This document shows positions 34,140-49,074 of a stretch of DNA of 64,000 nt, piece by piece. A model generated the notes under the pieces. It was not told the origin of the DNA. It saw only the letters and a program-made list of their open reading frames with translations, and did no database searches. Position 1 is the stretch's first letter. Every line of letters begins with the position of its first letter. Source of the stretch: Escherichia coli (GTDB lineage Bacteria; Pseudomonadota; Gammaproteobacteria; Enterobacterales; Enterobacteriaceae); NCBI RefSeq assembly GCF_030384885.1, contig NZ_CP128613.1. One strand, written 5' to 3'. The translations under genes and the position numbers were made by a program.

Positions 34140-34183
34140 TGGTGGGCTGGCGGGAGTTGAACCCGCGTCCGAAATTCCTACAT
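34140..34183. repeat. attL: direct repeat of ssrA 3' end (1-nt deletion relative to attR copy)
   Basis: TGGTGG-GCTGGCGGGAGTTGAACCCGCGTCCGAAATTCCTACAT matches 48498-48542 except for one missing A. Confidence 0.85.
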
Positions 34184-34310
34184 ACTAATAATATATCTTT
34201 AAAATCAAAATATTCTATTATTTATCAATGTATTATGTTTATGTGGTGTTAAGGGGTTTATATGGGTTTTAGTTCTCTGCCGCCAAAATGCCGCCAAAAA
34301 AATTGAATGG

Positions 34311-34336
34311 TAAAACGCCAGTTCGTTGAACTGGCG
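34311..34336 (-). terminator. Rho-independent terminator of the dcd-like/thyX-like operon
   Basis: Perfect hairpin CGCCAGTTC-G-TTGAACTGGCG followed (on minus strand) by TTTT, 10 nt after the thyX-like stop. Confidence 0.55.
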
Positions 34337-34346
34337 AGATCTTGTC

Positions 34347-35114
34347 TTATTGTTTTATTATCTTAACGTGCGCCGTTCCTCCATTGACTTTTTCGAAATC
34401 TTGGAACAAGGCAGGGGCATCTTGAGTTACAATATCGTAAAGTTTTTCTGAAACTGTTCTCATTTCATAGTCACCCTGTATTGCTCCTCTCATTTCGAAG
34501 AAGTGTCGAATTGCGCGAGCATTTGCTGTGACGATTATTTTTGTCTCGGTTGCATTAGGCAATATAGAGCGAGAAGCGCTTCTTAAGGCCCGCATTTTTT
34601 CTTTTTTGTTCTCATACGATTGGTTTTCACGGATTTTTTTCAAGGATTGCTTATAAAAATCCAGACTACTTTCAATATGTTGGCACCATGACTTAAACAA
34701 TTCTGGGTCATTTTTTACTTCTATAGGGGCTACGAATTCAGCATCGGATTCATCATGATACTGTTGGGATAACTGGCTATATGAAAAACCAGCTCTATGC
34801 CGAACTAGCTGGTGTGTAAATGCACGAGATACCCCAGTAATTAAAAAGGTCCAGTTCAAATGTTCTAAGACACTTTCATGCCCTTGAATAATTAAATTGT
34901 TGATATATTGACTTGTAGTCCGTGGAGACTGCTTATCCTCTCCAAAAGACATATAACATAGCCTGCCAGCGGCCTCTACCAGAAGCTCAGCTTCGGTCGC
35001 CTGCCCTTTGCGAACCCATTGCAATGATGATGTGTTTAAAAAATCATCAAAAACATTACTTTCAAATGAAGGGTGTGATATGCATTTTACTGATAAATCA
35101 GAGATTTTTATCAT
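34347..35114 (-). CDS. ThyX-family (flavin-dependent thymidylate synthase, Thy1 domain) homolog
   Basis: 255 aa; signature RHR-x8-S (LVRHRAGFSYSQLSQQY), upstream GHESVLEH and downstream TANARAIRHFF blocks align with canonical ThyX (GHETPFEH ... WFRHRIASYNELSGRY ... TVNARSLMNF). Low GC. Confidence 0.75.
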   Translation of the reverse strand: MIKISDLSVKCISHPSFESNVFDDFLNTSSLQWVRKGQATEAELLVEAAGRLCYMSFGEDKQSPRTTSQYINNLIIQGHESVLEHLNWTFLITGVSRAFTHQLVRHRAGFSYSQLSQQYHDESDAEFVAPIEVKNDPELFKSWCQHIESSLDFYKQSLKKIRENQSYENKKEKMRALRSASRSILPNATETKIIVTANARAIRHFFEMRGAIQGDYEMRTVSEKLYDIVTQDAPALFQDFEKVNGGTAHVKIIKQ

Positions 35115-35116
35115 TT

Positions 35117-35902
35117 TTACTCCCGTATAGCTTTTGGGGTGCTTACTTTAGCATCAACCTTTGGTTCGTTTGATTTAGCATTTTTTAGTAATTCAACGGT
35201 GCTTTTTAGGCTATTTATTTCATTTTGTTGAACTTTTATTGTTAATTCAAGATCTTTTGTACTACTGACATTACTGGATACTATTTGAAATAAGAAAGGA
35301 ATTGCTAGGGTTATCAACGTTAGCATTAAGGCTGCTATCGCAATTATAAAGCCAGTTTTTTTCGCAATGATTTTATTGATTTCTTTCGGAAGTCGTTTAT
35401 CAAGTCCTGCAAAATCCTTTCCCATTCTAGAAAGTTGATCATCATCCAATTTATTTACGATTTTTCCTTGGTAACCTTTAGTCGGTATTATTGTTTTAAA
35501 TAATAACATTCGGGCTACTGCTGAATTTTGTGTCAATGAGAATGGTTCTTTTGACATATTTACAAGATATATTGAAATTATGCCATTATATCCAGGGTCA
35601 ATATGCCCTGGATTCGTCATGATAATTCCATTTTTTGATAGTGTGTTTCTTGGAAATATTACACCAGCTAAATTTTTTGCAAGTTGGAATTTTTCATTTA
35701 ACTCTAATATTACAGTTTCCCCTGGCATCAGGATATGGTTGTTACGTGTTTTTTTATTGTCTTGACAGTCTGGTATATGTATTGTTTTTACAGAGAGATC
35801 AATGCTTGCAGATTGAACTTTAAATGTTCCATTTAATACCGTTAATGGATCAAAAATGTTGCCTCGCTGAATTTCATCATTGATTTCTATTTCAGACAGC
35901 AT
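35117..35902 (-). CDS. dCTP deaminase/dUTPase-superfamily protein with C-terminal transmembrane helix and coiled-coil tail
   Basis: 261 aa; residues 1-150 align with E. coli Dcd (ASIDLSVKT / LMPGETVILEL / GHIDPGYNGIISIYLVNMSKEPFSLTQNSAVARMLL vs ATVDVRLGN / LHPGELALAV / [34 protein letters not shown]); C-terminal hydrophobic segment GFIIAIAALMLTLITLAIPFLF then K/E-rich tail. 2-bp gap to the thyX-like gene. Confidence 0.75.
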   Translation of the reverse strand: MLSEIEINDEIQRGNIFDPLTVLNGTFKVQSASIDLSVKTIHIPDCQDNKKTRNNHILMPGETVILELNEKFQLAKNLAGVIFPRNTLSKNGIIMTNPGHIDPGYNGIISIYLVNMSKEPFSLTQNSAVARMLLFKTIIPTKGYQGKIVNKLDDDQLSRMGKDFAGLDKRLPKEINKIIAKKTGFIIAIAALMLTLITLAIPFLFQIVSSNVSSTKDLELTIKVQQNEINSLKSTVELLKNAKSNEPKVDAKVSTPKAIRE

Positions 35903-35928
35903 ATCAAAATCCTATATTTGTAAAGTTA

Positions 35929-36942
35929 TTATAAATTAGCCAGAGGGTTTTTTATTACTGCATCTTCAAGATGCTCTGGGGAAAAATGTGCATAAATCAT
36001 AGTCATTTTTATATCAGAGTGGCCTAAAATATCTCGTAAAACCAAAATATTACCACCATTCATCATAAAATGGCTGGCGAATGTATGGCGCAGAACGTGA
36101 GTGCATTGGCCCTCTGGTAACTCAATGTCAGCTCGCTTTACTGCTCGTTCAAAGGCTTTTCTGCAAGGAGTGAATAACTTCCCTCTGTTCTTAGGGAGTT
36201 CGTCATACAGATCCTGAGATATCGGCACGGTACGGTTTTTCTTGCCCTTAGTCTTGGTATAGGTGATCCGGTATTTCGATAACTGATGGCCCTGCAGATT
36301 TTCGGCTTCACTCCAGCGCGCGCCGGTGGCCAGGCATATTTTTGTAATTAAAAGTAGACTGGGGCTTTGAGAATCAGCACAGGCATCCAGCAGACGTTTA
36401 ATTTCTTCCGGGGTCAGGAACGACAGTTCACCCTCAGCAATTTTAAATGTTGGCAGCCCGGCAAGCGGATTGGGGGCTGACCAGTGGCCCAACTTTTTCA
36501 GTGTGCCAAAAACAGATGATAGGTTGCGCTGTTCAAGGTTTACAGTGCGGGGCTTAACGGGCGACATAAGCGTGCCCTCTTCATTTCGCACTTCACCTTT
36601 TAGCCGCGCTTCTCGGTATTTAGTAAAATCACCGGCTGTCAGCTCTGAGGCGATGGGATCGCCTAGACCATTACAGATAATTCTAAGTTTCGCCATGAGG
36701 CGCTTGGGGTCTGCGAGTGTTTGACCATACAGGGAATACCACTGCTCAATTAATTCTGATAGGTGTCGCCGATCTTCCTTTTCCCCCAGCCATGGCTTTT
36801 TGTTCACTTCTTCCATTGTGAAGCTTTCAAAAGCAATGGCTTCGCCTTTCGTAGCAAATTGCTTACGCACGCGCTTGCCATTGCGTCCATGGGGATAGCA
36901 CTCGCACAACCATTTACCGTTTGGCTGTTTTCTGACAGTCAT
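35929..36942 (-). CDS. int: Tyrosine recombinase, P2/186-type prophage integrase
   Basis: 337 aa; N-terminal GRNGKRVRKQFATKGEAIAFE, catalytic-region motifs (LATGARWSEA, HVLRHTFASHF, MIYAHF) typical of P2-like integrases. Confidence 0.85.
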   Translation of the reverse strand: MTVRKQPNGKWLCECYPHGRNGKRVRKQFATKGEAIAFESFTMEEVNKKPWLGEKEDRRHLSELIEQWYSLYGQTLADPKRLMAKLRIICNGLGDPIASELTAGDFTKYREARLKGEVRNEEGTLMSPVKPRTVNLEQRNLSSVFGTLKKLGHWSAPNPLAGLPTFKIAEGELSFLTPEEIKRLLDACADSQSPSLLLITKICLATGARWSEAENLQGHQLSKYRITYTKTKGKKNRTVPISQDLYDELPKNRGKLFTPCRKAFERAVKRADIELPEGQCTHVLRHTFASHFMMNGGNILVLRDILGHSDIKMTMIYAHFSPEHLEDAVIKNPLANL

Positions 36943-36944
36943 GT

Positions 36945-37577
36945 TTAGATACTCTTTATTACTTTGACTGCACGCCCAATAACTTCCACATCATCAGTAG
37001 AGCACTCGAAAGACGCTTCATCTTGATTTACTACAATCTTATTGCCGGGAATCCGCATGATTTTTGCAACAATAATCATTCCATCAATATTGATAAGCCA
37101 GAATCCATTGCTGACCTGTTTAATTGATTTATCGATGAGATAACAATTAGTAGGGGTTTCTAAGAACATCAATTCTTCATAATCTGCAGGTAATATGCTG
37201 TGGTCTAGGAAAATCTCTTCATCAATACTGAGTTGTCCATTCTCCAGGGTTCCTTTAGGAATAGCTGGAGTTATGAGTTTGGATAACGGTTTAATTGCTT
37301 GTTTGTTCTCATTATGAGAACTTTTCTCAGGCTCAGCTCCTCCTTTCATGCTTCCCTGTCCTGTAGCTAACCAAAGCAACGAAACACCGGTTTCTAGTGC
37401 GCACTGAATTATCCAGTCAGCAGGAAAGCTGTCACGTAACACTCTGTTTGCCATAGTGCTTTTTGAGACATTCAGGTGCTCGCTTAATGCCTGCTTAGTT
37501 GTGAATCCATAAGCCTCAAGCAGCCTTTCAATAGCTGCCTTACCTCCCGTATCGGAACCCATTCTGATGTTTAACAT
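36945..37577 (-). CDS. Phage CI-like repressor (186 CI-type HTH)
   Basis: 210 aa; HTH region LSEHLNVSKSTMANRVL; immediately upstream of and overlapping int start (cI-int operon), divergent from apl/cox-like gene. Confidence 0.7.
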   Translation of the reverse strand: MLNIRMGSDTGGKAAIERLLEAYGFTTKQALSEHLNVSKSTMANRVLRDSFPADWIIQCALETGVSLLWLATGQGSMKGGAEPEKSSHNENKQAIKPLSKLITPAIPKGTLENGQLSIDEEIFLDHSILPADYEELMFLETPTNCYLIDKSIKQVSNGFWLINIDGMIIVAKIMRIPGNKIVVNQDEASFECSTDDVEVIGRAVKVIKSI

Positions 37578-37698
37578 TGGTGATCTCCATTTGACAATCT
37601 TGAATCAAGATCGTAATGTCTTCATGTCTCTTGATGTGAGAGTTTAAGAGACGGGCTAAAACGAACTAACACGCACACAAAGTAAGAGATACTGCACT

Positions 37699-37941
37699 AT
37701 GAGTACTGATATTTCAATTCGTGTACCAAAAGAGATGGCTACGCCTGCAGAGTTCGCAGAGTGGGAGGGTATTTCCCGCGGCTCTGTTTACCAAAAAATT
37801 CACCATGGTCAACTTGCTAAGTACATGGTCAAGAAAGAAAAAAACAAAGGCCGCGTAAGCCTGCGTTATCTGATGTACAAAACCGATCAGGTCCGTGAAT
37901 CCCTCGGTCATTCCAACTTCCGCGTCATTGTTGGTAAGTAA
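37699..37941 (+). CDS. Apl/Cox-like excisionase/lytic switch regulator
   Basis: 80-aa basic protein divergently transcribed from cI-like gene, HTH-like EWEGISRGSVYQKI. Confidence 0.6.
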   Translation: MSTDISIRVPKEMATPAEFAEWEGISRGSVYQKIHHGQLAKYMVKKEKNKGRVSLRYLMYKTDQVRESLGHSNFRVIVGK

Positions 37942-37973
37942 GTTCAATTATGGGAACTTTCTAAGGGGGCACC

Positions 37974-38483
37974 ATGTTTGATTACAAGATTTCCAAACAT
38001 CCGCATTTCGATGAAGCCTGTAGGGCTTTTGCACTGCGCCACAACCTGGTGCAACTGGCAGAACGTGCAGGCATGAATGTGCAGATTCTGCGGAACAAGC
38101 TGAACCCAGCTCAACCTCATTTATTAACTGCACCAGAAATCTGGTTGCTTACCGATCTGACTGAAGATTCAACGCTGGTAGATGGTTTTCTGGCTCAGAT
38201 TCACTGCCTGCCATGTGTACCGATTAATGAGGTGGCAAAAGAGAAACTGCCACATTACGTCATGAGTGCAACCGCAGAGATCGGGCGTGTCGCGGCAGGT
38301 GCGGTTTCTGGCGATGTAAAAACCAGTGCAGGCCGTCGTGATGCGATCAGCAGCATTAACTCTGTTACACGACTGATGGCGCTGGCTGCTGTTTCATTGC
38401 AGGCCCGTTTACAGGCTAATCCTGCGATGGCGAGTGCGGTTGATACCGTGACTGGCCTCGGTGCTTCATTCGGTTTGCTGTGA
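37974..38483 (+). CDS. CII-like phage regulatory protein (186 CII-like)
   Basis: 169 aa; position and size match phage 186 CII; HTH-like N-terminus. Confidence 0.6.
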
Positions 38484-38489
38484 GGTGCT

Positions 38490-38787
38490 TATGCTGATGA
38501 AAGAACCATCATTTGCATCGCTCCTGGTAAAACAAAGTCCGGCAATGCACTACGGTCACGGCTGGATCATGGGTGAGGATGGTAAACGCTGGCATCCGTA
38601 CCGTTCACAAGATGAATTGCTGTCTGAATTGACCACGAGGAAACGGAGAAAGTCCAAATGTATGCGGCAGAAAATAAAGTGGTTTATCACTTTCGTTACA
38701 GAGGGGAGAATTATTCAGTACCTGAAGATGATTTGCTCTGTTGCTATCCGTCGTTGTCGGGCGATGGTAGCTACTTTTTCACGCTAA
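38490..38787 (+). CDS. Hypothetical small phage protein (possibly shorter; overlaps next ORF out of frame)
   Basis: ORF begins MLMKEPSFASLLVKQSPAMHYGHGWIMGEDGKRWHPYRSQDELLSEL; distal part overlaps 38658-38882 and may be a read-through artefact. Confidence 0.35.
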
Positions 38788-38882
38788 AGGATGGAACCTT
38801 TATACGTGGTGAAAAAGTACAAGAAGTGATGCGTATAAAGACATCACCTCTTGAACGTTATCGGCGAAATATTTATCGGTAA
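38658..38882 (+). CDS. Hypothetical small phage protein
   Basis: 74 aa, preceded by GGAGAAAG Shine-Dalgarno. Confidence 0.5.
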   Translation: MYAAENKVVYHFRYRGENYSVPEDDLLCCYPSLSGDGSYFFTLKDGTFIRGEKVQEVMRIKTSPLERYRRNIYR

Positions 38883-39121
38883 CGATCTATCAGTGTCTGT
38901 ATCAGATGAGTGAATTCTTGTTGTTTAACCGAACCTAAAGGAAGTTTGTTTAATTCTTCGCGGAGGAGCTCAAAAAATGCTGATTGATTTGCTGAGTCAG
39001 TTCGAAATAAGGAGTGGATCAGACCTGAAACAAGAATTCGTTGAACAGCAACCTCATCGCGAAGACTGGAGATCTCGTTTTCAAGTTGCTCTATACGCTC
39101 TCTTTCAACCGGGTTCAACAT
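38873..39121 (-). CDS. Hypothetical coiled-coil protein (82 aa), opposite strand to early operon
   Basis: ORF MLNPVERERIEQLENEISSLRDEVAVQRILVSGLIHSLF...; heptad-like pattern; opposite orientation to flanking genes. Confidence 0.4.
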   Translation of the reverse strand: MLNPVERERIEQLENEISSLRDEVAVQRILVSGLIHSLFRTDSANQSAFFELLREELNKLPLGSVKQQEFTHLIQTLIDRYR

Positions 39122-39202
39122 TGATGATTCCTTCTAGCTATCAATATGTTGGTAATGGATCATATCAAAAATTTTTTAGTAGATGTGTTGTGGGATGCAT
39201 AA

Positions 39203-39544
39203 ATGGCTATTGAAGGCACTGCGGCGACTGTTCCATTAAGCCCCGGTGAACGCCTGAATGGACTTAATCACATTGCGGAGTTAAGGGCGAAAGTTTTTGG
39301 CCTGAATATTGAGTCAGAGCTTGAGCGGTTTATTAAAGATATGCGTGATTCACGGGATATTAATAGCGAACAAAATAAACGGGCACTGGCTGCCATATTC
39401 TTTATGGCAAAAATTCCAGCTGAACGTCATAGCATCAGCATTAATGAGCTGACCACTGACGAAAAGCGGGAGTTGATTAAAGCAATGAATCATTTTCGTG
39501 CAGTGGTGAGCTTATTTCCCAGACGGCTAACCATGCCGAATTAA
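39203..39544 (+). CDS. Hypothetical phage protein (113 aa)
   Basis: ORF in early-operon orientation. Confidence 0.5.
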   Translation: MAIEGTAATVPLSPGERLNGLNHIAELRAKVFGLNIESELERFIKDMRDSRDINSEQNKRALAAIFFMAKIPAERHSISINELTTDEKRELIKAMNHFRAVVSLFPRRLTMPN

Positions 39545-39605
39545 CCAACTAATGAAATTAATGGCGTAAACCCGCCGGGCATCCCTTTATCTAAATTCAG
39601 GAGAA

Positions 39606-39845
39606 TTGATTATGCGTAATATTGAAACCCTCTCGACCAAAACCGGACCGGATGACGCAGGGCTTAATATTTTACTGACAGAGGCTCGTCTGGAAGAACG
39701 CCGGGCAAGGGCTGAAGCAATGGCAGCTCGCCTTGATAGCCTGGCGTGTCATATCACATCCCGCCAGCTAACCCACGTCGAAGCGGCAGAACTGCTTCGT
39801 GTGACTGCTGAAGCAATCCAGAACGAAGCGCAGGAGATCCACTGA
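39606..39845 (+). CDS. Hypothetical phage protein (79 aa)
   Basis: ORF with GGAGAA RBS; stop overlaps next start (ATGA). Confidence 0.5.
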   Translation: MIMRNIETLSTKTGPDDAGLNILLTEARLEERRARAEAMAARLDSLACHITSRQLTHVEAAELLRVTAEAIQNEAQEIH

Positions 39846-40072
39846 TGGCTGATGCAATGGATCTCGTACAGCAGCGCGTTGAAGAAGAACGCCAACGCCA
39901 TATCCGTGCTGCCCGTGCCAAAACGCCGGGCGTGTCCCGCGTGCTTTGCATTGAGTGTGAAGCGCCAATTCCGCCAGCACGCCGCCGTGCCATTCCGGGT
40001 GTGCAGCTTTGCATTACCTGTCAGGAAATCGCAGAGCTGAAAGGCAAACATTACAACGGAGGTGCTGTATGA
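39845..40072 (+). CDS. TraR/DksA-family C4 zinc-finger protein
   Basis: 75 aa with CIECEAPI...CITCQ four-Cys motif. Confidence 0.7.
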   Translation: MADAMDLVQQRVEEERQRHIRAARAKTPGVSRVLCIECEAPIPPARRRAIPGVQLCITCQEIAELKGKHYNGGAV

Positions 40073-40926
40073 GCACCATCCTGAAATGGGCGGGAAATAA
40101 AACTGCCATAATGTCCGAACTGAAAAAACATCTTCCTGCTGGCCCGCGACTGGTTGAACCTTTCGCGGGTTCCTGTGCTGTGATGATGGAGACGGATTAT
40201 CCCAGCTATCTGGTTGCGGATATTAATCCTGATTTAATCAACCTCTATAAAAAGGTTGCCGCTGATTGTGAATCGTTTATATCTCGCGCCAGAGTTTTAT
40301 TTGAGATCGCAAACAGGGAGGTGGCTTATTACAACATAAGGCAGGAGTTTAATTACTCAACTGAAATTACTGATTTCATGAAAGCGGTATATTTCCTGTA
40401 TCTCAATCGTCACGGTTACCGTGGTTTATGTCGCTATAACAAGAGCGGGCATTTCAACATTCCCTACGGTAATTATAAAAATCCGTATTTCCCTGAAAAA
40501 GAAATTCGCGCATTTGCAGAAAAGGCCCAGCGAGCAACGTTTATCTGCGCCAGCTTTGATGAAACGCTGGCGATGTTGAAGGCGGGGGATGTGGTGTATT
40601 GCGATCCGCCGTATGACGGTACGTTTTCCGGCTATCACACTGACGGCTTCACTGAAGATGACCAGTATCACCTGGCATCTGTTCTTGAACATCGGTCATC
40701 AGAAGGACATCCGGTCATTGTTTCTAACAGTGACACATCCCTGATCCGTTCGCTGTATCGCAATTTTACTCACCACTACATCAAGGCAAAACGCAGCATC
40801 GGTGTGGCAGCTGGCGAGGGTAAATCAGCAACAGAAATCATTGCTGTTTCCGGGCCGCGCTGCTGGGTGGGATTTGATTATTCGCGTGGCGTGGATAGTT
40901 CTGCCGTGTACGGAGTACGTGCATGA
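40069..40926 (+). CDS. DNA adenine methyltransferase (Dam-like, D12 class N6-adenine MTase)
   Basis: Protein [25 protein letters not shown]...EPFAGSCAV... and DPPY catalytic motif (VYCDPPYDG). Confidence 0.85.
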
Positions 40927-43337
40927 GTCATGCCGATATGAACAACTGCTGCGGCTTTAACGAAGCTGCCGCATCGTTCTCATGGAACAGCCCGAAAAAG
41001 GCCATTAACCCTTATCTGGACCCGGCGGAAGTTGCGCCGGTTTCTGCGCTTTCAAACCTGATCACTCTGTACGCTACTGATAACGAGCAGGAACAACTGC
41101 GCCGCGAGGCACTGAGTGATCAGGTCTGGGAGCGTTATTTCTTTAATGAATCCCGTGATCCTGTCCAACGCGAAATGGAGCAGGATAAGCTCATTAGCCG
41201 GGCAAAGATGGCGCATGAGCAGCAGCGTTTTAATCCAGACATGGTCATTCTGACTGACGTCAACGCCCAGCCTTCCCATATCAGCAAGCCGCTGATGCAA
41301 CGTATTGAATATTTCAGCAGCCTGGGCAGGCCAAAGGCTTATTCCCGCTATTTGCGTGAGACGATTAAGCCATGTCTGGAACGACTGGAGCATGTACGCG
41401 ACAGCCAGCTATCTGCATCTTTTCGTTTTATGGCAAGCCATGAAGGGCTGGACGGTCTGCTGATCCTGCCTGAAATGAGTCAGGATCAGGTGAAACGCCT
41501 GTCTACCCTTGTCGCTGCGCATATGAGCATGTGTCTTGATGCCGCTTGTGGTGATTTGTACGCCTCCGATGATGTTAAGCCAGAAGAAATCCGCAAGACA
41601 TGGGAAAAGGTGGCTGCAGAAACCCTGCGACTGGATGTCATACCGCCTGCGTTTGAGCAACTCCGCCGGAAAAGAAACCGCCGCAAACCTGTGCCTTATG
41701 AACTCATTCCGGGTTCGCTGGCGCGTATGCTGTGCGCCGACTGGTGGTATCGGAAATTATGGAAGATACGTTGCGAATGGCGGGAAGAGCAGTTGCGTGC
41801 TGTCTGCCTGGTCAGCAAAAAAGCATCTCCCTATGTCAGCTATGAAGCCGTGATGCATAAACGTGAGCAGCGCCGTAAGTCGCTGGAGTTTTTCCGTTCT
41901 CATGAACTGGTGAACGAAGACGGCGACACGCTGAACATGGAGGATGTGGTAAACACCAGCAGCAGCAACCCGGCGCATCGCCGCAACGAGATGATGGCCT
42001 GTGTTAAAGGCCTAGAGCTTATCGCGGAAATGCGTGGTGACTGCGCCGTTTTCTACACCATCACCTGTCCGTCACGTTTCCATTCCACGCTAAATAACGG
42101 CAGGCCAAACCCGACCTGGACCAACGCGACAGTAAGACAAAGCAGCGATTATCTGGTCGGCATGTTTGCTGCATTTCGTAAGGCTATGCACAAAGCCGGG
42201 TTGCGCTGGTATGGCGTGCGGGTGGCTGAGCCGCATCATGACGGCACAGTTCACTGGCACCTGTTGTGTTTCATGCGCAAAAAAGACCGCCGCGCCATTA
42301 CTGCATTGTTGCGTAAGTTTGCCATCCGTGAAGACCGCGAGGAGCTGGGCAATAACACGGGGCCACGCTTTAAGTCTGAGCTGATAAACCCGCGCAAAGG
42401 AACGCCGACAAGCTACATTGCGAAATATATCAGTAAGAATATTGACGGGCGTGGTCTGGCTGGCGAGATCAGTAAGGAAACGGGTAAATCCCTGCGTGAT
42501 AACGCTGAATACGTTAATGCCTGGGCGTCTCTGCATCGTGTTCAGCAATTCCGCTTCTTTGGCATTCCGGGGCGTCAGGCTTACCGTGAACTGCGATTGC
42601 TGGCTGGTCAGGCGGCAAGGCAACAGGGTGACAAAAAAGCAGGTGCGCCGGTACTGGATAACCCGCGCCTTGATGCCATCCTGGCTGCTGCTGATGCTGG
42701 TTGTTTTGCCTCCTACATCATGAAGCAGGGCGGCGTACTGGTTCCCCGCAAATATCACCTCATCAGAACCGCTTATGAAATCAACGAAGAGCCGACCGCC
42801 TATGGCGATCACGGTATTCGTATTTATGGCATCTGGTCACCCATTGCAGAGGGCAAGATCTGCACTCATGCAGTGAAGTGGAAAATGGTTCGTAAGGCCG
42901 TTGACGTTCAGGAGGCGGCAGCCGACCAGGGCGCTTGCGCCCCTTGGACTCGTGGCAATAACTGTCCCCTTGCTGAAAATTTGAACCAACAGGAGAAAGA
43001 TAAATCAGCTGATGGGGACACCAGAACGGACATTACCCGCATGGATGACAAGGAGTTGCACGATTACCTGCACAGTATGAGCAAAAAAGAGCGCCGGGAA
43101 CTGGCTGCAAGGTTACGCCAGGTGAAACCGAAACGGCGTAAAGACTACAAACAGCGAATTACAGACCATCAGCGACAGCAGCTCGTCTATGAACTGAAGT
43201 CCAGGGGATTTGATGGCAGTGAGAAAGAAGTCGATTTGCTCCTTCGCGGTGGCAGTATTCCGTCAGGAGCAGGCCTGCGTATTTTCTATCGGAACCAGCG
43301 TCTGAAGGAAGATGATAAGTGGCGGAACCTGTATTAA
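40923..43337 (+). CDS. Phage replication initiation protein (186/P2 gene A-type endonuclease)
   Basis: 804-aa protein following Dam in early operon; size and position match P2/186 protein A. Confidence 0.7.
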
Positions 43338-43489
43338 TTACGCGGGTTAACAATTCGTGCCCTTAATAATACCAGGCATATCAGGCTGATGAATGTAAAA
43401 AAACGTTTTACATCAGTAAGATTATTATATACTGTAAATATAAACAGTGGTTATCTATACAGTATTGCTTTGGTGTCATAGGAGGAAAG

Positions 43490-43678
43490 ATGCAGGACTA
43501 TTTTTTGGAGTCTTTGAAGCTCCAGCGCATTGATTTTTTTCTTAAGCTTGTAGCGGCTAGTGAGTGTAGTGATGAAGAGAAGGGGCTGGCTCTGCAGTGG
43601 GTTTCTGAACTGACAGATGAACTCATGGCAAAAATCAGAACCCACGAATACAACCGCTCAATGGATGTCATCAGCTGA
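43490..43678 (+). CDS. Hypothetical protein (62 aa)
   Basis: Small ORF with GGAGGAAAG RBS upstream of ATG. Confidence 0.45.
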   Translation: MQDYFLESLKLQRIDFFLKLVAASECSDEEKGLALQWVSELTDELMAKIRTHEYNRSMDVIS

Positions 43679-43688
43679 GGTGACTTTT

Positions 43689-43922
43689 ATGCGCATTGAA
43701 ATAATGATCGATAAAGAGCAGAAGATTAGCCAGTCTACCCTGGACGCCCTTGAATCCGAGCTTTACCGCAATCTGCGCCCCCTGTATCCCAAAACGGTAA
43801 TCCGTATCCGTAAAGGTAGCTCTAACGGTGTGGAACTGACCGGACTGCAACTGGACGAAGAAAGAAAACAAGTGATGAAAATTATGCAGAAGGTGTGGGA
43901 AGACGACAGCTGGCTGCATTGA
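43689..43922 (+). CDS. DinI-family protein
   Basis: 77 aa MRIEIMIDKEQKISQSTLDALESELYRNLRPLYP...VWEDDSWLH, resembling DinI (MRIEVTIAK...DALAGELSRR...W...). Confidence 0.7.
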   Translation: MRIEIMIDKEQKISQSTLDALESELYRNLRPLYPKTVIRIRKGSSNGVELTGLQLDEERKQVMKIMQKVWEDDSWLH

Positions 43923-44035
43923 TTTTGTCAATAGACGCTTGTTTTTACTAATCAAAAAGGGTTACATATGAGTGAGAGGCGATGTCAATCAGATATCGCC
44001 TTGTTTTTTGTCAAGAAAAGAATAATAGGCTAAAA

Positions 44036-44713
44036 ATGAAAATTAATAATGTAGCGTTACCAATATCTCTTGCTGTAATCCTAACTGGTTGCGTGCCACA
44101 TGCTTCTAACCGAAATATCACTGCTATTGAAGTGGTGAAGCCTGCTATTGGGCAAAGTGCTACCGCCTACATGGGCGATCCCATTATCACATCTGCTACT
44201 GGATTTAAAACGGACGTACTAGAACTTGGTGCGGCTAATGGTGCATTGTCTTCTATCGCTGCTGGTACATATTGCAGTGAGGGGAATGGAATTTACCGCA
44301 ATTATCATAACCCTCAAGCTGTTGCGTTAAAAAATCTCTATGGGCAAATCGGTAACTATGTTGATTATGTTAGTTACGATGCTGCAAAAAATGAGATATC
44401 ACCGCCAAATGGTACTTCTTATACTGCATCAGAAATTTCTATCAAACGTGTTCCTGATGGGCTGTGTCGAGTTAGTAACTCATTGGTTAAGACTATCGAA
44501 TACAATGGAAATGCAGGCGGTGTAATGAAGTTCACCTATCGTGAATTTGCAAACGATATGGCTCGTGCAGCATTTACAACAGATTTTTCTGTAGATTCTA
44601 AGGGAAGTGACGTTATCGCTTACAAAGGTGCCAAGTTCAAAGTGAACAAGGCTGATAACTCGTCTATTTCTTATACAATTATTTCTGGCTTTGACAAGGC
44701 TGTCACGTTCTAG
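44036..44713 (+). CDS. Predicted lipoprotein (225 aa), function unknown
   Basis: Signal peptide with lipobox (MKINNVALPISLAVILTGC); low-GC; located in cargo region after replication gene. Confidence 0.6.
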   Translation: MKINNVALPISLAVILTGCVPHASNRNITAIEVVKPAIGQSATAYMGDPIITSATGFKTDVLELGAANGALSSIAAGTYCSEGNGIYRNYHNPQAVALKNLYGQIGNYVDYVSYDAAKNEISPPNGTSYTASEISIKRVPDGLCRVSNSLVKTIEYNGNAGGVMKFTYREFANDMARAAFTTDFSVDSKGSDVIAYKGAKFKVNKADNSSISYTIISGFDKAVTF

Positions 44714-45038
44714 GTTTCACGCTTACTGAGTATGTTACGATTTTGCACATTCTGCATAAACGCGCATGTCTATGCTGCATGAGATCGCATGATCGTTTGA
44801 GGATCTTTTGTGTTAAGGCCCGCCAGTTCTGGCGGGCTTTTGCGTAGATCATGCAGGTGCATGAAAACCACTACATAAAGCGGGCAGGCGTGGCGGGGAT
44901 ACGAGCGCGCGTTATGACAAATAGATGATTAGCCTGATTTATTCACAGCTGTATAAATGATCACCTTGTAATTAGGTAAGTAATGTCTTCTATTATCATT
45001 GATTTGATAGGATTAATCTGTTTTTTGAGGATTAGAGG

Positions 45039-47375
45039 ATGATTGAAGAGGTAGTTATTGACAAAGTAGGCTCATATAATGGCCCTACTCAGCTTTTACA
45101 TGGGCTTTCTAAATTTAACTATTTATATGGAGCTAATGGTGCAGGTAAAACAACTATAAGTAAAATTATTAATGACCCTGAACAATATCCAACATGTCCG
45201 ATTAAATGGAAAAATAATATATCTTTAATAAGCTACGTATATAATAAAGATTTTGTTGAAAGAAATTTTAGTCAAGATAAAATTAAAGGTGTATTTACCC
45301 TTGGTAGCGATCTTAAGGAGGATGAAGAGAAATTAATATCTCTTGAAGAAGAAAAAAATAAGCTAATAGAATCTATTATAGCAAAGGAAAAGCTAATAGA
45401 TGGTGGTGATAATATATTAGGCGTTGTTAAACAAATCGAAGACCATGAAAAATCTTTTAAAGATTCATGTTGGAAGCAAAAAGTAAAACATGATAATGTG
45501 TTCTCAAAGGCTTTTGAGGGATTAAGGAATAGTAGTGAAAAATTTAAAGCTAGAGTGTTGGCTGAGTATGAAAATAACACATCAGAAGTTTGCTCAATAG
45601 CAGAGCTAATTGAGAAAGCAAAAATTGTTTTTTCTACTGAATTGACATCACATGTATCAATTACAATTCCATCCTTCAATGGGATAGATGATATTTTGAG
45701 TAGGGAGATTTGGAGTGAGCGTATTCTAGGGAAAAAAGACGTTAGTGTTTCAGACTTAATTACAATGCTCAATAACAGTGATTGGGTTAAGGAAGGTTTA
45801 ACATATTTCAGTAAATCTAATCCCAAGTGCCCATTCTGCCAGCAGGATGTAAATGATAATATATTTGATAATCTATCATCATATTTTGATAAAACATATG
45901 AGTTAAAAAAAAGAGAAATCGATGCATTGGTTTTACAATATGAACATCAACTTAATAATATCTTGCAGGCGATAGATGATATAAGGGCGATTAAATCTCC
46001 ATTCATAAATTATGAAGTGTTTGAGGATAAGGCTAAGATAGTATTATCTGAATTAAACAAGAATTTTGAATTGGCAAAAAATAAACGCAATTTTTTAAGT
46101 GAATCAGTTCATTTTAGTGACTTAAGTGAAGTTGTTGATGATTTTATTTCTTTTTTGAATGATTCAAATCTATTGATAGATAATAATAACAAAATACACA
46201 GTAATAGAAAGGTAGAGGCTAGTAATCTTTCTAATCAGATATGGGCATATATCGTAAAGGTGGAGTTAAAGTCTGAAATAACTTCTTACCGTAGCGAATC
46301 TGATAAATTTAATAGGAAGTTACAAGGGCTTAAATCTGGGTTAGAGGAAGACAAAAAGAAGTTAATGTTAAATGCTTCGGCTATTGAGGCAATTGAGTCT
46401 AATAAAACCAGTACTCTTCCAACTATTACAAAAATTAACAAGATTCTGGATTCTTATGGCTTCAAAAATTTTTACTTAAAACCCTCCGAAGATAAAAAGC
46501 ATTATATGATAGTGAGAGATAGTGGAGATAATGCTCGTACAACCCTTAGCGAGGGAGAAAAGACATTTATCACTTTTTTGTATTTTTATAGCCTTGTTAG
46601 AGGGAGTGATAATGCATCAGGTGTTTTAGATGATCGTGTTGTAGTATTTGATGATCCAATTTCAAGTTTAGATAGTGATATTCTGTTTATTGTAAGTTCG
46701 TTGATTAAAGATTTAATGGAGGATGTTCGTAAGGATGAAGGAAATATTAAGCAAATTATATTCCTTACACATAATATTTATTTTCATAAAGAGTTGACTT
46801 TTAATACTAAAAGATCCGGTAATCAAGCAATGAAAGAGGAGACTTTTTGGATTGTAAGGAAAAAAGGGAAGGTCTCATATCTTGAAAAGTGCGAATCAAA
46901 CCCAATAAAAACGTCTTATGATTTGCTCTGGTGCGAATTGAGAAGAACAGATATTAATAATAATACTATACAAAATACAATGCGAAGGATTTTGGAGAAT
47001 TACTTTAAGATATTAGGTGGGATGGATATTAGGAAGCTTGAATGTCATTTTTATGGTGATGAAAAAATCATATTTAAATCTTTAGTGTCATGGATTAATG
47101 ATGGTTCTCATTTTGCAGGTGATGATCTTTATATGAATTTAGATACGGAGTCTGTGCAAAAATATTTAATTGTTTTTCAGAAGATATTTGAGTGTAGTGA
47201 GCATACTGCCCATTACAAAATGATGATGGGTGAGTTTTATAGACCGTTAAATGAGTCACTTCATCTACAAGATGAGTTTGATATTGATGATAGTGCGAAT
47301 GATGAGTATGCTTCGTCAAAAATTGAGATAGAAGATGGAATAAACACATCTCTACATAGTAATACATATTTGTAA
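45039..47375 (+). CDS. PrrC/RloC-like ABC-type ATPase (AAA_13-like) with CxxC motif and C-terminal putative HEPN-like domain
   Basis: 778 aa; Walker A GANGAGKTT, Walker B VVVFDDPISSLD, H-loop-like FLTHN, long K/E-rich coiled-coil insert containing CPFC; C-terminal domain with RKLECH (R-x4-H) and RRILE (R-x3-E) motifs; very low GC. Confidence 0.65.
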   Translation: MIEEVVIDKVGSYNGPTQLLHGLSKFNYLYGANGAGKTTISKIINDPEQYPTCPIKWKNNISLISYVYNKDFVERNFSQDKIKGVFTLGSDLKEDEEKLISLEEEKNKLIESIIAKEKLIDGGDNILGVVKQIEDHEKSFKDSCWKQKVKHDNVFSKAFEGLRNSSEKFKARVLAEYENNTSEVCSIAELIEKAKIVFSTELTSHVSITIPSFNGIDDILSREIWSERILGKKDVSVSDLITMLNNSDWVKEGLTYFSKSNPKCPFCQQDVNDNIFDNLSSYFDKTYELKKREIDALVLQYEHQLNNILQAIDDIRAIKSPFINYEVFEDKAKIVLSELNKNFELAKNKRNFLSESVHFSDLSEVVDDFISFLNDSNLLIDNNNKIHSNRKVEASNLSNQIWAYIVKVELKSEITSYRSESDKFNRKLQGLKSGLEEDKKKLMLNASAIEAIESNKTSTLPTITKINKILDSYGFKNFYLKPSEDKKHYMIVRDSGDNARTTLSEGEKTFITFLYFYSLVRGSDNASGVLDDRVVVFDDPISSLDSDILFIVSSLIKDLMEDVRKDEGNIKQIIFLTHNIYFHKELTFNTKRSGNQAMKEETFWIVRKKGKVSYLEKCESNPIKTSYDLLWCELRRTDINNNTIQNTMRRILENYFKILGGMDIRKLECHFYGDEKIIFKSLVSWINDGSHFAGDDLYMNLDTESVQKYLIVFQKIFECSEHTAHYKMMMGEFYRPLNESLHLQDEFDIDDSANDEYASSKIEIEDGINTSLHSNTYL

Positions 47376-47424
47376 TTTTATTGCAATTGCCAGTAGCAAC
47401 AATACGGTACTGGCAACTAATATT

Positions 47425-47965
47425 TTAGTTAAGCTCATATGGAGAAAATTCTATAAGTTTCTCCCCGAGCCATGCGTTTATTTCCATAAATCGTTTTTGC
47501 AAAGGAATTAATTCATTTATCACAAAAACCTTACTAGCCTTCTCCACATCCCCAAACCCCCCAACATTATTAGGCATTATCCCCATCATTTGCGGCGGCA
47601 CACGGTGTGCCGCCATCATGTCGTCCCGGCTCACGTTCTTGATATTCAGAAACTCATCCTTCGCCGCGACTTCTGACAACGGGATAATCTGAAGCCCGTC
47701 CTTTTTGCCGTTAGGAGAGTACATAAACAGGTTGCGGAAGTTGCCTGGCCCTTTGGCACTTTTCATTGCGTTGCGGAGGTTGTTCACATCTTCTTGGTTC
47801 TGTGCGGCATCGGTCATGTACATGATGAAACCTGCATGGCTGCCGTTGATGTAATACTTACGGCGGAACAGTGTGGCGGACTCGTTGAGCAGGGCTGACG
47901 GGATGGCAGAGAGATAACCTGGCAGGCCGTAGATCTCCTGGTTGATGTCCGGTTCCGCCCTTAAT
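47425..47965 (-). pseudogene. Phage portal protein (P2 gpQ-like), 3' fragment only
   Basis: C-terminal portal-like sequence (...FRNLFMYSPNGKKDGLQIIPLSEVAAKDEFL...); reading frame extends upstream without start until sequence character changes near 47965. Confidence 0.6.
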
Positions 47966-48153
47966 CATCTCAACCATGCGTTACAGCTCGATCCCCGCTG
48001 TGGCGTGAAAAAAGACAAACAGCAGCTGGAGCGCAGACTGCGCAATGACAGCCGCTGACAGAACGTGCCCCCGCGCACGGGCGGCACGGGGTGGCGAAAG
48101 GCACAGCCACATCAAAACCCCGTCCACCGCCCTTTATTTCAGGAGAAAGCAGC

Positions 48154-48354
48154 ATGAAGTTTGTTGCGCCAGAACAGGCACCGGAACAGGCGGAAATCAT
48201 CAGAAACACGCCGTTCTGGCCTGATGTGGACCTGTCGGAGTTTCGCAGTGTCATGCGCACTGACGGCACGGTGACGCAGCCGCGTTTAAAGCAGGTTGCG
48301 CTGTCGGCAATTTCGGAGGTCAACGCACCGATACGACCATTTGCATTGATGTAA
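48154..48354 (+). CDS. Hypothetical small protein in prophage remnant (66 aa)
   Basis: ORF MKFVAPEQAPEQAEIIRNTPFWPDVDLSEFRSV... preceded by AGGAG RBS; identity not recognised. Confidence 0.4.
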   Translation: MKFVAPEQAPEQAEIIRNTPFWPDVDLSEFRSVMRTDGTVTQPRLKQVALSAISEVNAPIRPFALM

Positions 48355-48497
48355 ACAAAGTGAAGTTCTTCCATGTGAAACCTCTTTGCATGATTTCAAG
48401 ATGGCGACAGGCAAGATGGACGCAAAAGTCTGTCGCCATTTTGCCGCCACTACCAAAGAAAAAGGGGCTACGCTTTCACGTAACCCCTTGATTTATT

Positions 48498-48542
48498 TGG
48501 TGGAGCTGGCGGGAGTTGAACCCGCGTCCGAAATTCCTACAT
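48498..48542. repeat. attR: ssrA 3'-terminal att core
   Basis: TGGTGGAGCTGGCGGGAGTTGAACCCGCGTCCGAAATTCCTACAT, repeated at 34140-34183. Confidence 0.85.
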
Positions 48543-48860
48543 CCTCGGTACTACATGCTTAGTCAGTCTTTACATTCGCTTGCCAGCTGCGGACGGACAC
48601 GCCACTAACAAACTAGCCTGATTAAGTTTTAACGCTTCAACCCCAGGCAGGGCTTCCACGCGATCTCTTTTGGGTTTGACCTCTCTTGATCCCCGTCCTA
48701 AGAGCGGAGGCTAGGGAGAGAGGGCTCTAAGCAGGTTATTAAGCTGCTAAAGCGTAGTTTTCGTCGTTTGCGACTATTTTTTGCGGCTTTTTACGAGGCC
48801 AACCGCCCCTCGGCATGCACCTTGGGTTTCGCAAATCCCGTCGAATCCAGAATCAGCCCC
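48498..48860 (-). ncRNA. ssrA: tmRNA (SsrA)
   Basis: Reverse complement matches E. coli tmRNA from 5' GGGGCTGATTCTGGATTCGACGGG to 3' ...GGGTTCAACTCCCGCCAGCTCCACCA, including the tag-coding region. Confidence 0.95.
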
Positions 48861-49074
48861 AATGTGTAACGGTAAGTATACCAGATTCATGAGTGCCATG
48901 ACCAGCCTCAATGGCGTTATCGTTAAAGATTTAGCACCCGTGTAGCCTGATATTTATTCGATTAAGCAATGGGATGGCAACATTTGGGTCGGATGTGATA
49001 GCCAATAAGATGTTCATTCGCGCCGCCGGAGAGGGTGGCGCGGTGAGGAACTGGTCAATAATTGGAGTGCAGAT

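Follow-up and report, generated by a model that had tools for sequence, protein, structure and literature searches.

Structure of the region between the portal gene and ssrA

Analysis of a 64,000-nucleotide stretch of the Escherichia coli contig NZ_CP128613.1 (assembly GCF_030384885.1; hereafter, the window) revealed that the region at 47425–48497, which ends against the transfer-messenger RNA (tmRNA) gene ssrA, is very probably the scar of two deletions that occurred, by illegitimate recombination at short homologies, in a prophage of the P2/186 type (Fels-2-like) located at ssrA. As judged from its sequence, the region can be described as a non-functional scar containing four gene fragments, derived from the portal gene (gpQ homologue), the gpM and gpL homologues and a gene for a BRCT-domain protein. 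They lie in three pieces, fragments A, B and C, separated by the junctions J1 and J2 (Table 1), and pairwise alignment showed all three to be collinear and co-oriented with intact prophages.

Positions 47000–48900 were searched against 5,426 complete E. coli genomes. The segment 47000–47956 matched prophages annotated as "AAA family ATPase" and "phage portal protein" (up to 99.8% identity), the segment 47948–48327 matched 980 genomes at 95–99.5% with the annotations "terminase endonuclease/small subunit" and "head completion/stabilization protein", and the segment 48326–48900 matched "ssrA" and "BRCT domain-containing protein" (up to 100% identity); no genome covered more than half of the query. 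Two intact prophages were used as references, that of MINF_1D (L001), with the same AAA ATPase gene beside the portal gene, and that of CH4793 (L002/L006), located at ssrA with the BRCT gene beside it. The surviving pieces fitted the P2/186 gene order found in L001 and L006, i.e., A, cos, cargo, Q and P (minus strand), O, N, M and L (plus strand), followed further on by D, ogr and att. An earlier note on this DNA, made from the letters alone, had placed a deletion junction inside the portal gene and taken it to mark the loss of the late region. Both points were borne out by the alignment with intact P2-like prophages, a check that the note itself had proposed and that mapped the deletion endpoints to the base; neither a full-length portal gene nor collinearity with an intact phage, which the note had named as evidence to the contrary, was found. 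The note had implied a single junction, but there are two, at 47953–47956 and 48326–48327, the second of which it had missed.

In the three-way alignment at J1, the portal parent read …GATGTCCGGTTCC followed by ATCAG and the gpM parent read …AATCCGGCTTCC followed by GCCCTT, and in the window …GATGTCCGGTTCC ran directly into GCCCTT. The portal site was the single best match to that gpM site within portal nt 1–640. No inserted DNA, insertion sequence (IS) or other foreign DNA was present at J1 or J2 in the three-way alignments, and an IS-mediated origin was rejected on this ground. The collinearity of the pieces, the short homologies at the junctions and the lack of IS or foreign DNA together argue for illegitimate recombination.

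Since an identical intact progenitor was lacking, the sizes of the deletions were taken from related prophages. Measured on the CH4793 prophage at ssrA, deletion 1 comprised 4,865 bp and removed the N-terminal half of the portal, the large terminase, the scaffold, the capsid and most of gpM. Deletion 2 comprised 16,708 bp and took out gpL beyond codon 58, gpX, the holin, the lysin (lysozyme), the spanin, every tail and baseplate gene, D, ogr and the bulk of the BRCT gene. Together they account for about 21.6 kb out of the prophage's roughly 33.6 kb. The particle-forming gene set is reduced to 177 of the 343 codons of the portal gene, 33 codons of gpM and 58 of the 154 codons of gpL, the rest being absent.

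Gene fragments retained in the scar

Fragment A aligned to the L001 portal gene without gaps and at 99.7% identity up to 47956, and it gave a Pfam match to Phage_portal (PF04860) at profile positions 142–277 of 321 (37.5 bits, under the 39.1-bit cut-off), both in agreement with the minus-strand frame holding the C-terminal part of a portal protein that the earlier note had recognized. The break that the note had put near 47965 exists, its true position being 9–12 bp away. The frame keeps its stop at 47425 and meets an in-frame stop immediately across J1; its first own start codon is an ATG at 47823, and a full-length portal with its own start is absent. The hairpin that separates the convergently oriented AAA_13 and portal genes is a probable bidirectional terminator by its predicted fold.

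Fragment B corresponds to the middle of the head operon. The small open reading frame (ORF) in it, which the earlier note had seen with its ribosome-binding site and left unassigned, indeed exists, its ATG lying 8 nt past a GGAG. Its product matched Phage_GPL (PF05926) at positions 1–44 of 139 (Pfam, E = 1.8e-13), and this 66-aa peptide, gpL′, clustered with proteins named by NCBI "head completion/stabilization protein, partial"; the full-length domain (139 positions; about 154 aa in relatives) is absent, only 58 of 154 codons being retained. By these comparisons the ORF is classed as a pseudogene fragment of a member of the Phage_GPL family. Its end, 48328–48354, is a 9-residue out-of-frame tail (PIRPFALM; the first codon straddles J2) with a stop, derived from the antisense strand of the BRCT gene. 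An origin from the far end of the prophage, as had been suggested for this ORF, is rejected, since it represents the gpL 5′ end after the gpM 3′ end, both from mid head operon; the tail D or Ogr/B sequences proposed for the check were not present in 47425–48497. The description of the last 530 bp or so before ssrA as GC-rich holds for 47957–48327 (58% G+C) and not for the final 170 bp (44%). The spacer between M and L showed no significant folding stability (z = -1.8).

The BRCT start in fragment C was 100% identical to CH4793 (L002 8001–8049), where, as in other intact relatives, the gene is located between ogr and attR; BRCT start and ssrA together matched CH4793 at 100% over 575 bp. A far-end fragment is thus retained, as the earlier note had thought possible, although it amounts to merely 172 bp (48326–48497) comprising 5′ codons of the BRCT gene and the attR-proximal terminator. 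The hairpin at 48462–48489 with its U-run (-23.6 kcal/mol, z = -3.5) was the sole terminator-like site of the region in a terminator scan. Because it lies directly downstream of ssrA, phage DNA would supply the terminator of tmRNA, and by this reading the last 120 bp or so, with the ssrA terminator hairpin, are likely the one piece of the scar that matters. The right-end sequence is kept beside ssrA in other prophage-bearing strains, and the location of the ssrA terminator in about 120 bp of phage DNA may limit how far such deletions reach. It was also observed that a chimeric ORF of 134 aa (47970–48374, minus strand) begins with the native start and 16 codons of the BRCT gene and then reads antisense across gpL′ and gpM′; should the BRCT gene still have its native promoter, transcripts would extend into the portal fragment in sense orientation.

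Recurrence of the deletion allele

Two public runs contained the exact 66-aa gpL′ product. At least five others had the chimeric 134-aa ORF, which runs across J2 and comes to within about 15 bp of J1; the exact ORF was read on 9 public contigs. Runs ERR13369355, ERR12948940 and SRR35948513 are examples from the lineage with this remnant. Seven contigs, from at least seven independent runs, were retrieved and were 99.9–100% identical to the window across J1 and J2, one of them (14,381 bp) corresponding to window positions 34154–48534, which is the complete remnant from one att repeat to the other. The deletion allele is real and not an artefact. Neither junction was present in any of the complete genomes, and an exact scan of the Joint Genome Institute (JGI) metagenome contigs for J1 gave 0 matches. 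The sole point in favour of a chimeric join of prophage reads, made in sequencing or assembly, is that the configuration is missing from complete genomes; with identical junctions in contigs of unrelated runs, one of them ending exactly at the att repeats, such an artefact is next to impossible.

Origin of the scar

A temperate phage of the P2/186 group, about 33–34 kb long and nearest to the Fels-2 type, would have integrated into the 3′ end of ssrA. Deletion 1 would have joined portal nt 501–505 to the gpM 3′ end and deletion 2 would have joined gpL codon 58 to codon 16 of the BRCT gene at the right end of the prophage, probably as separate, sequential events and by replication slippage or short-homology end joining. 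The remnant may have persisted as a harmless or useful element; still present in it are int, CI, the replication gene, the cos-like block and cargo that includes the PDC-S06 candidate defence ATPase.

Three observations weigh against this account. First, no genome or contig with one junction alone was found among the complete genomes, the public contigs and the metagenome scan. Second, no intact progenitor with the same module combination was found among the complete genomes, the best match covering 75%. Third, the portal position of J1 (nt ~503) was also used by two other independent deletions, which hints that the breakpoint may be non-random. The first of these, together with the microhomology at both junctions, would also suit a single complex event, in which about 21.9 kb between the portal and BRCT genes was lost in one deletion and the 371-bp gpM′-gpL′ segment was copied in as templated filler, e.g., by serial template switching. 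However, the middle piece is in its native order and orientation, two simple deletions need no extra assumptions, and a stepwise build-up of deletions is directly visible in a related series (L021–L025, L022 included); we consider a single event improbable.

The fragments might also have been kept for a function, for instance if a peptide from the portal C-terminus (132 aa) or gpL′ (66 aa) disturbed particle assembly by superinfecting P2-like phages. In many independently truncated prophages the same portal ORF of 132 aa persists, starting with the ATG at portal nt 634, and the fragments adjoin the retained candidate defence gene. On the other hand, that set of prophages was found by searching for this very ORF, the portal length kept varies between 390 and 787 nt, a scan of 47300–48900 gave no sigma-70-like promoter and the late-gene activator ogr is deleted, and 19 of 20 complete-genome prophages with this cargo have an intact portal. 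Retention for such a function is thus very unlikely, and two deletions that left non-functional pieces behind remain the preferred explanation.

Such a scar is of use chiefly for annotation, in that the region holds four pseudogene fragments and not an orphan gene, as expected of ordinary prophage decay; it is also one more case of cargo and candidate defence genes outliving their virus.

Clustering of breakpoints in the portal gene

Look-ups of the truncated-portal ORF and its variants brought up many further remnants. Ten deletion junctions (loci: J1 of the window, L007, L013–L019, L021–L025, L032 and L033) had portal-side crossovers at nt 247, 338, 426, 427, 503, 504, 505, 541, 543 and 641. 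Three clusters were evident, at nt 426–427 (2 events), nt 503–505 (3 events with different partners, J1 included) and nt 541–543 (2 events). The partners were P (two sites), M, U, T (four sites) and D (twice); the portal genes belong to several lineages and lie at two or more chromosomal sites. In this small, post hoc sample, in which recovery partly by ORF identity favours junctions at about nt 307–633, five breakpoint pairs lay within 3 nt of each other (P = 0.002–0.005 under a uniform null; 0.015–0.03 without two possibly derivative events). Truncation of the portal was rare in complete genomes, occurring in 43 of 1,251 portal-bearing records and in 1 of 20 with this cargo.

The density of microhomology along the portal gene was flat and DNA hairpin energies at portal nt 480–560 were unremarkable, neither explaining the clusters, and a ranking test did not favour a model with a fixed portal break over one with a fixed partner. 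Dcm sites (CCWGG), Chi-like sequences, type I-E protospacer adjacent motifs, invertase crossover sites and the att core were compared by eye, and none fitted all three clusters. It is conceivable, though rather doubtful, that the portal gene has site-specific fragility, J1 then being non-random, or that remnants move with the aid of a helper. Such fragility could stem from a nick or double-strand break that recurs there, nicking by gpA being one idea, or from illegitimate recombination, aided by homology, with fragments of incoming phages whose ends are fixed. The reuse of breakpoints in unrelated strains is a lead, not a result, and the only part of this work that could repay further effort.

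Gene content of the 14.3-kb remnant

The att repeats bracket an element of 14.3 kb without any complete virion or lysis gene (Table 1). Its duplicated 38-bp att core and tyrosine integrase agree with the site-specific integration of P2/186-like prophages.

Table 1. Features of the prophage remnant and of the adjoining ssrA gene (window coordinates)
Feature	Position	Strand	Evidence or remarks
attL core, 38 bp	34146–34183		left boundary of remnant; exact copy of ssrA 3′ end, identical to attR
thyX	34347–35114	-	Pfam Thy1, 2.6e-48
dCTP-deaminase/dUTPase-like (DCD-like) gene, 261 aa	35117–35902	-	Pfam DCD 5.9e-15, dUTPase 1e-12
Integrase, full length	35929–36942	-	Pfam Int_N and Phage_integrase
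CI repressor, full length	36945–37577	-	TUM12355 annotation
Replication endonuclease (gpA homologue), 804 aa, full length, early operon	40923–43337	+	97.9% collinear with 2415-bp L001 gene
Cargo ORF, 243 aa, between DinI-like gene and cos-like block	43982–44713	+	98.6% identical to Klebsiella phage 4LV2017
Non-coding block, 152 bp	44760–44911		cos-like sequence GGCGTGGCGGGGATACGAG at 44887–44905
AAA_13 ATPase, 778 aa	45039–47375	+	Pfam AAA_13 5.8e-164, full length; PADLOC PDC-S06 1.5e-266, full-length match
Hairpin between convergent AAA_13 and portal genes, 49 bp	47376–47424		folding z -4.2 (plus), -3.4 (minus)
Fragment A: portal (gpQ homologue) 3′ 532 nt, C-terminal 177 of 343 codons, pseudogene	47425–47956	-	alignment and Pfam
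Junction J1	47948–47956		crossover in TTCC (47953–47956); imperfect 9/10 match, TCCGGTTCC (portal) vs TCCGGCTTCC (gpM)
Fragment B, 371 bp	47957–48327	+	L001 18521–18901, 98.7% identical
gpM homologue (small terminase/endonuclease subunit), last 33 codons and stop	47957–48058	+	98.7–99.5% identical to "terminase endonuclease subunit" genes of 980 E. coli genomes
Native M-L spacer, 95 bp, GC-rich, with gpL ribosome-binding site	48059–48153	+	collinear with L001 18633–18727
Small ORF	48154–48354	+	48154–48327: gpL homologue (head completion/stabilization), first 58 codons
Junction J2	48326–48327		2-bp microhomology CA, gpL vs BRCT gene (three-way alignment)
Fragment C	48328–48497		BRCT-gene start (minus strand) and prophage right end
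BRCT-domain gene (160 aa in intact form), first 16 codons	48328–48374	-	ATG at 48374
Prophage right end adjoining ssrA	48375–48497		hairpin 48462–48489 (minus strand), then UUUUUCUUU
ssrA (tmRNA), intact	48498–48860	-	ARAGORN; Rfam tmRNA, 295.8 bits
attR core, 38 bp, inside ssrA	48505–48542		att repeat

The thyX and DCD-like genes lie between attL and int, and the same pair is annotated in strain TUM12355; neither gene had a match in PADLOC, and a role in the nucleotide pool or in DNA modification is possible. The integrase and CI genes were 99.7% identical to, and equal in length with, the "site-specific integrase" and CI genes of TUM12355. The Phage_GPA domain of the gpA homologue was found in an identical public contig (L008), and the remnant also retains a DinI-like gene. 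The 243-aa cargo ORF is absent from the L001 and CH4793 prophages and had no match in Pfam or PADLOC; an internal Met would give a lipoprotein-type signal (…LAVILTGC).

The cos-like block was 100% identical to Fels-2 and 95–99% identical to relatives in Salmonella, Klebsiella and E. coli. A P2-type 19-nt cohesive-end sequence was not found, allowing up to 3 mismatches, in the window or in an intact relative, and a 186-like cos variant was spotted by eye instead; a P2 ori nick sequence was absent from the window. Variable cargo begins right after the cos-like block, which thus forms a sharp mosaic boundary. The AAA_13/PDC-S06 gene that follows is a candidate defence gene in the cos-proximal hotspot of P2.

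Comparison with related prophages and known systems

Intact prophages of the Fels-2/186 type (Peduoviridae, Felsduovirus-like; e.g., those of CH4793 and MINF_1D) occupy the same ssrA att site, with int distal to ssrA and ogr and BRCT proximal, and share with the remnant the order int-CI-…-A-DinI-cos-cargo-Q-P-O-N-M-L, the fragments being 98.7–100% identical. In contrast to them, the remnant lacks about 21.6 kb (head, lysis, tail, D and ogr) and cannot form particles. Its cargo set, i.e., thyX with the DCD-like gene, the 243-aa ORF and AAA_13, occurred together in no complete genome searched. In MINF_1D, an extra 708-bp ORF annotated as "terminase large subunit domain-containing protein" (L001 13454–14161) was noticed between the portal and terminase genes, and several further genomes have it as well. 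A partial duplication and a module inserted into the P-Q operon are the two possible readings.

Cryptic prophages that arose by deletional decay include CP4-57 at ssrA and the P2 remnant ogrK-yegZ, both in E. coli K-12, and other cases of prophage domestication in enterobacteria. They likewise lose lytic and structural modules, keep the integrase, the repressor and accessory genes, and carry truncated genes at their junctions. The remnant described here does not differ from them in kind; it is a specific, previously unlisted allele with junctions defined at the base level.

Decay was seen in other members of this phage group as well. TUM12355 (L007, NZ_CP134376.1 1227438–1248487) carries an independent remnant at ssrA, 99.7% identical across thyX-int-CI, in which the portal gene is fused at portal nt 246 to a truncated tape-measure gene and the replication gene has lost its N-terminus, with ogr, D and U kept. 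In public contigs with AIPR and DarTG cargo (L021–L025 and L028), one common junction between truncated terminase and portal genes is accompanied by differing further deletions that reach the scaffold, baseplate, lysozyme or tail-fibre gene, and one contig has IS1 in the cargo. Stepwise decay can be read from the L021–L025 series, and decay recurs across this phage group. A different route of inactivation was observed in L029–L031 (with a portal ORF of 133 aa that takes its name from a Salmonella Dublin record; 400 index blocks) and in L026/L027, where the portal DNA is of full length and holds two ORFs in place of one; a frameshift or nonsense mutation is the presumed cause, and the split appears to be fixed in a widely sequenced lineage.

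A defence hotspot between gpA and gpQ, beside cos, has been described in P2 by Rousset et al. 2022 (PMC9122126), and the AAA_13/PDC-S06 gene and the 243-aa ORF occupy the same position beside the cos-like block. That study treats P2-like phages, a text search of it showing no degraded prophages, whereas in the present remnant the hotspot outlives the virion genes.

P4-like satellites resemble the remnant in being about 14 kb long and in having their own integrase, immunity, replication and cos-like site without structural genes. Unlike them, it arose by reduction of a helper-type phage, and its replication gene is of the P2 gpA type and not P4 alpha; among the ORFs at 34–48 kb, none of the sid, psu, delta or epsilon type was noticed, although no systematic search for them was made. 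With att, int, the replication gene and the cos-like site in place, the remnant could in principle be mobilized by a helper P2-like phage as a defence-carrying pseudo-satellite.

Integration site and neighbouring chromosome

The ssrA gene is a classic integration site. In the window its 3′ end abuts the scar, smpB sits just past it, and an Rfam scan of 47300–48950 gave tmRNA only. The attL core also matched that of the intact MINF_1D and CH4793 prophages. Conserved chromosome flanks attL on the left, with ypjA, ypjCB, a recombinase pseudogene and tRNA-Ile. A third, degenerate right end of the P2 type was noticed at 28592–28667, 92% identical over 64 bp to 48436–48499 with the terminator hairpin included, and followed by a decayed sequence like the ssrA 3′ end. 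It adjoins the recombinase pseudogene and ypjA, is conserved in about 2,400 genomes and has the appearance of an attR from a far more ancient P2-like prophage. The tRNA at 26188–26263 was called tRNA-Met (CAT anticodon) by ARAGORN, and its homologue is annotated as tRNA-Ile in related genomes; it is probably of the ileY type, with a lysidine-modified CAT anticodon.

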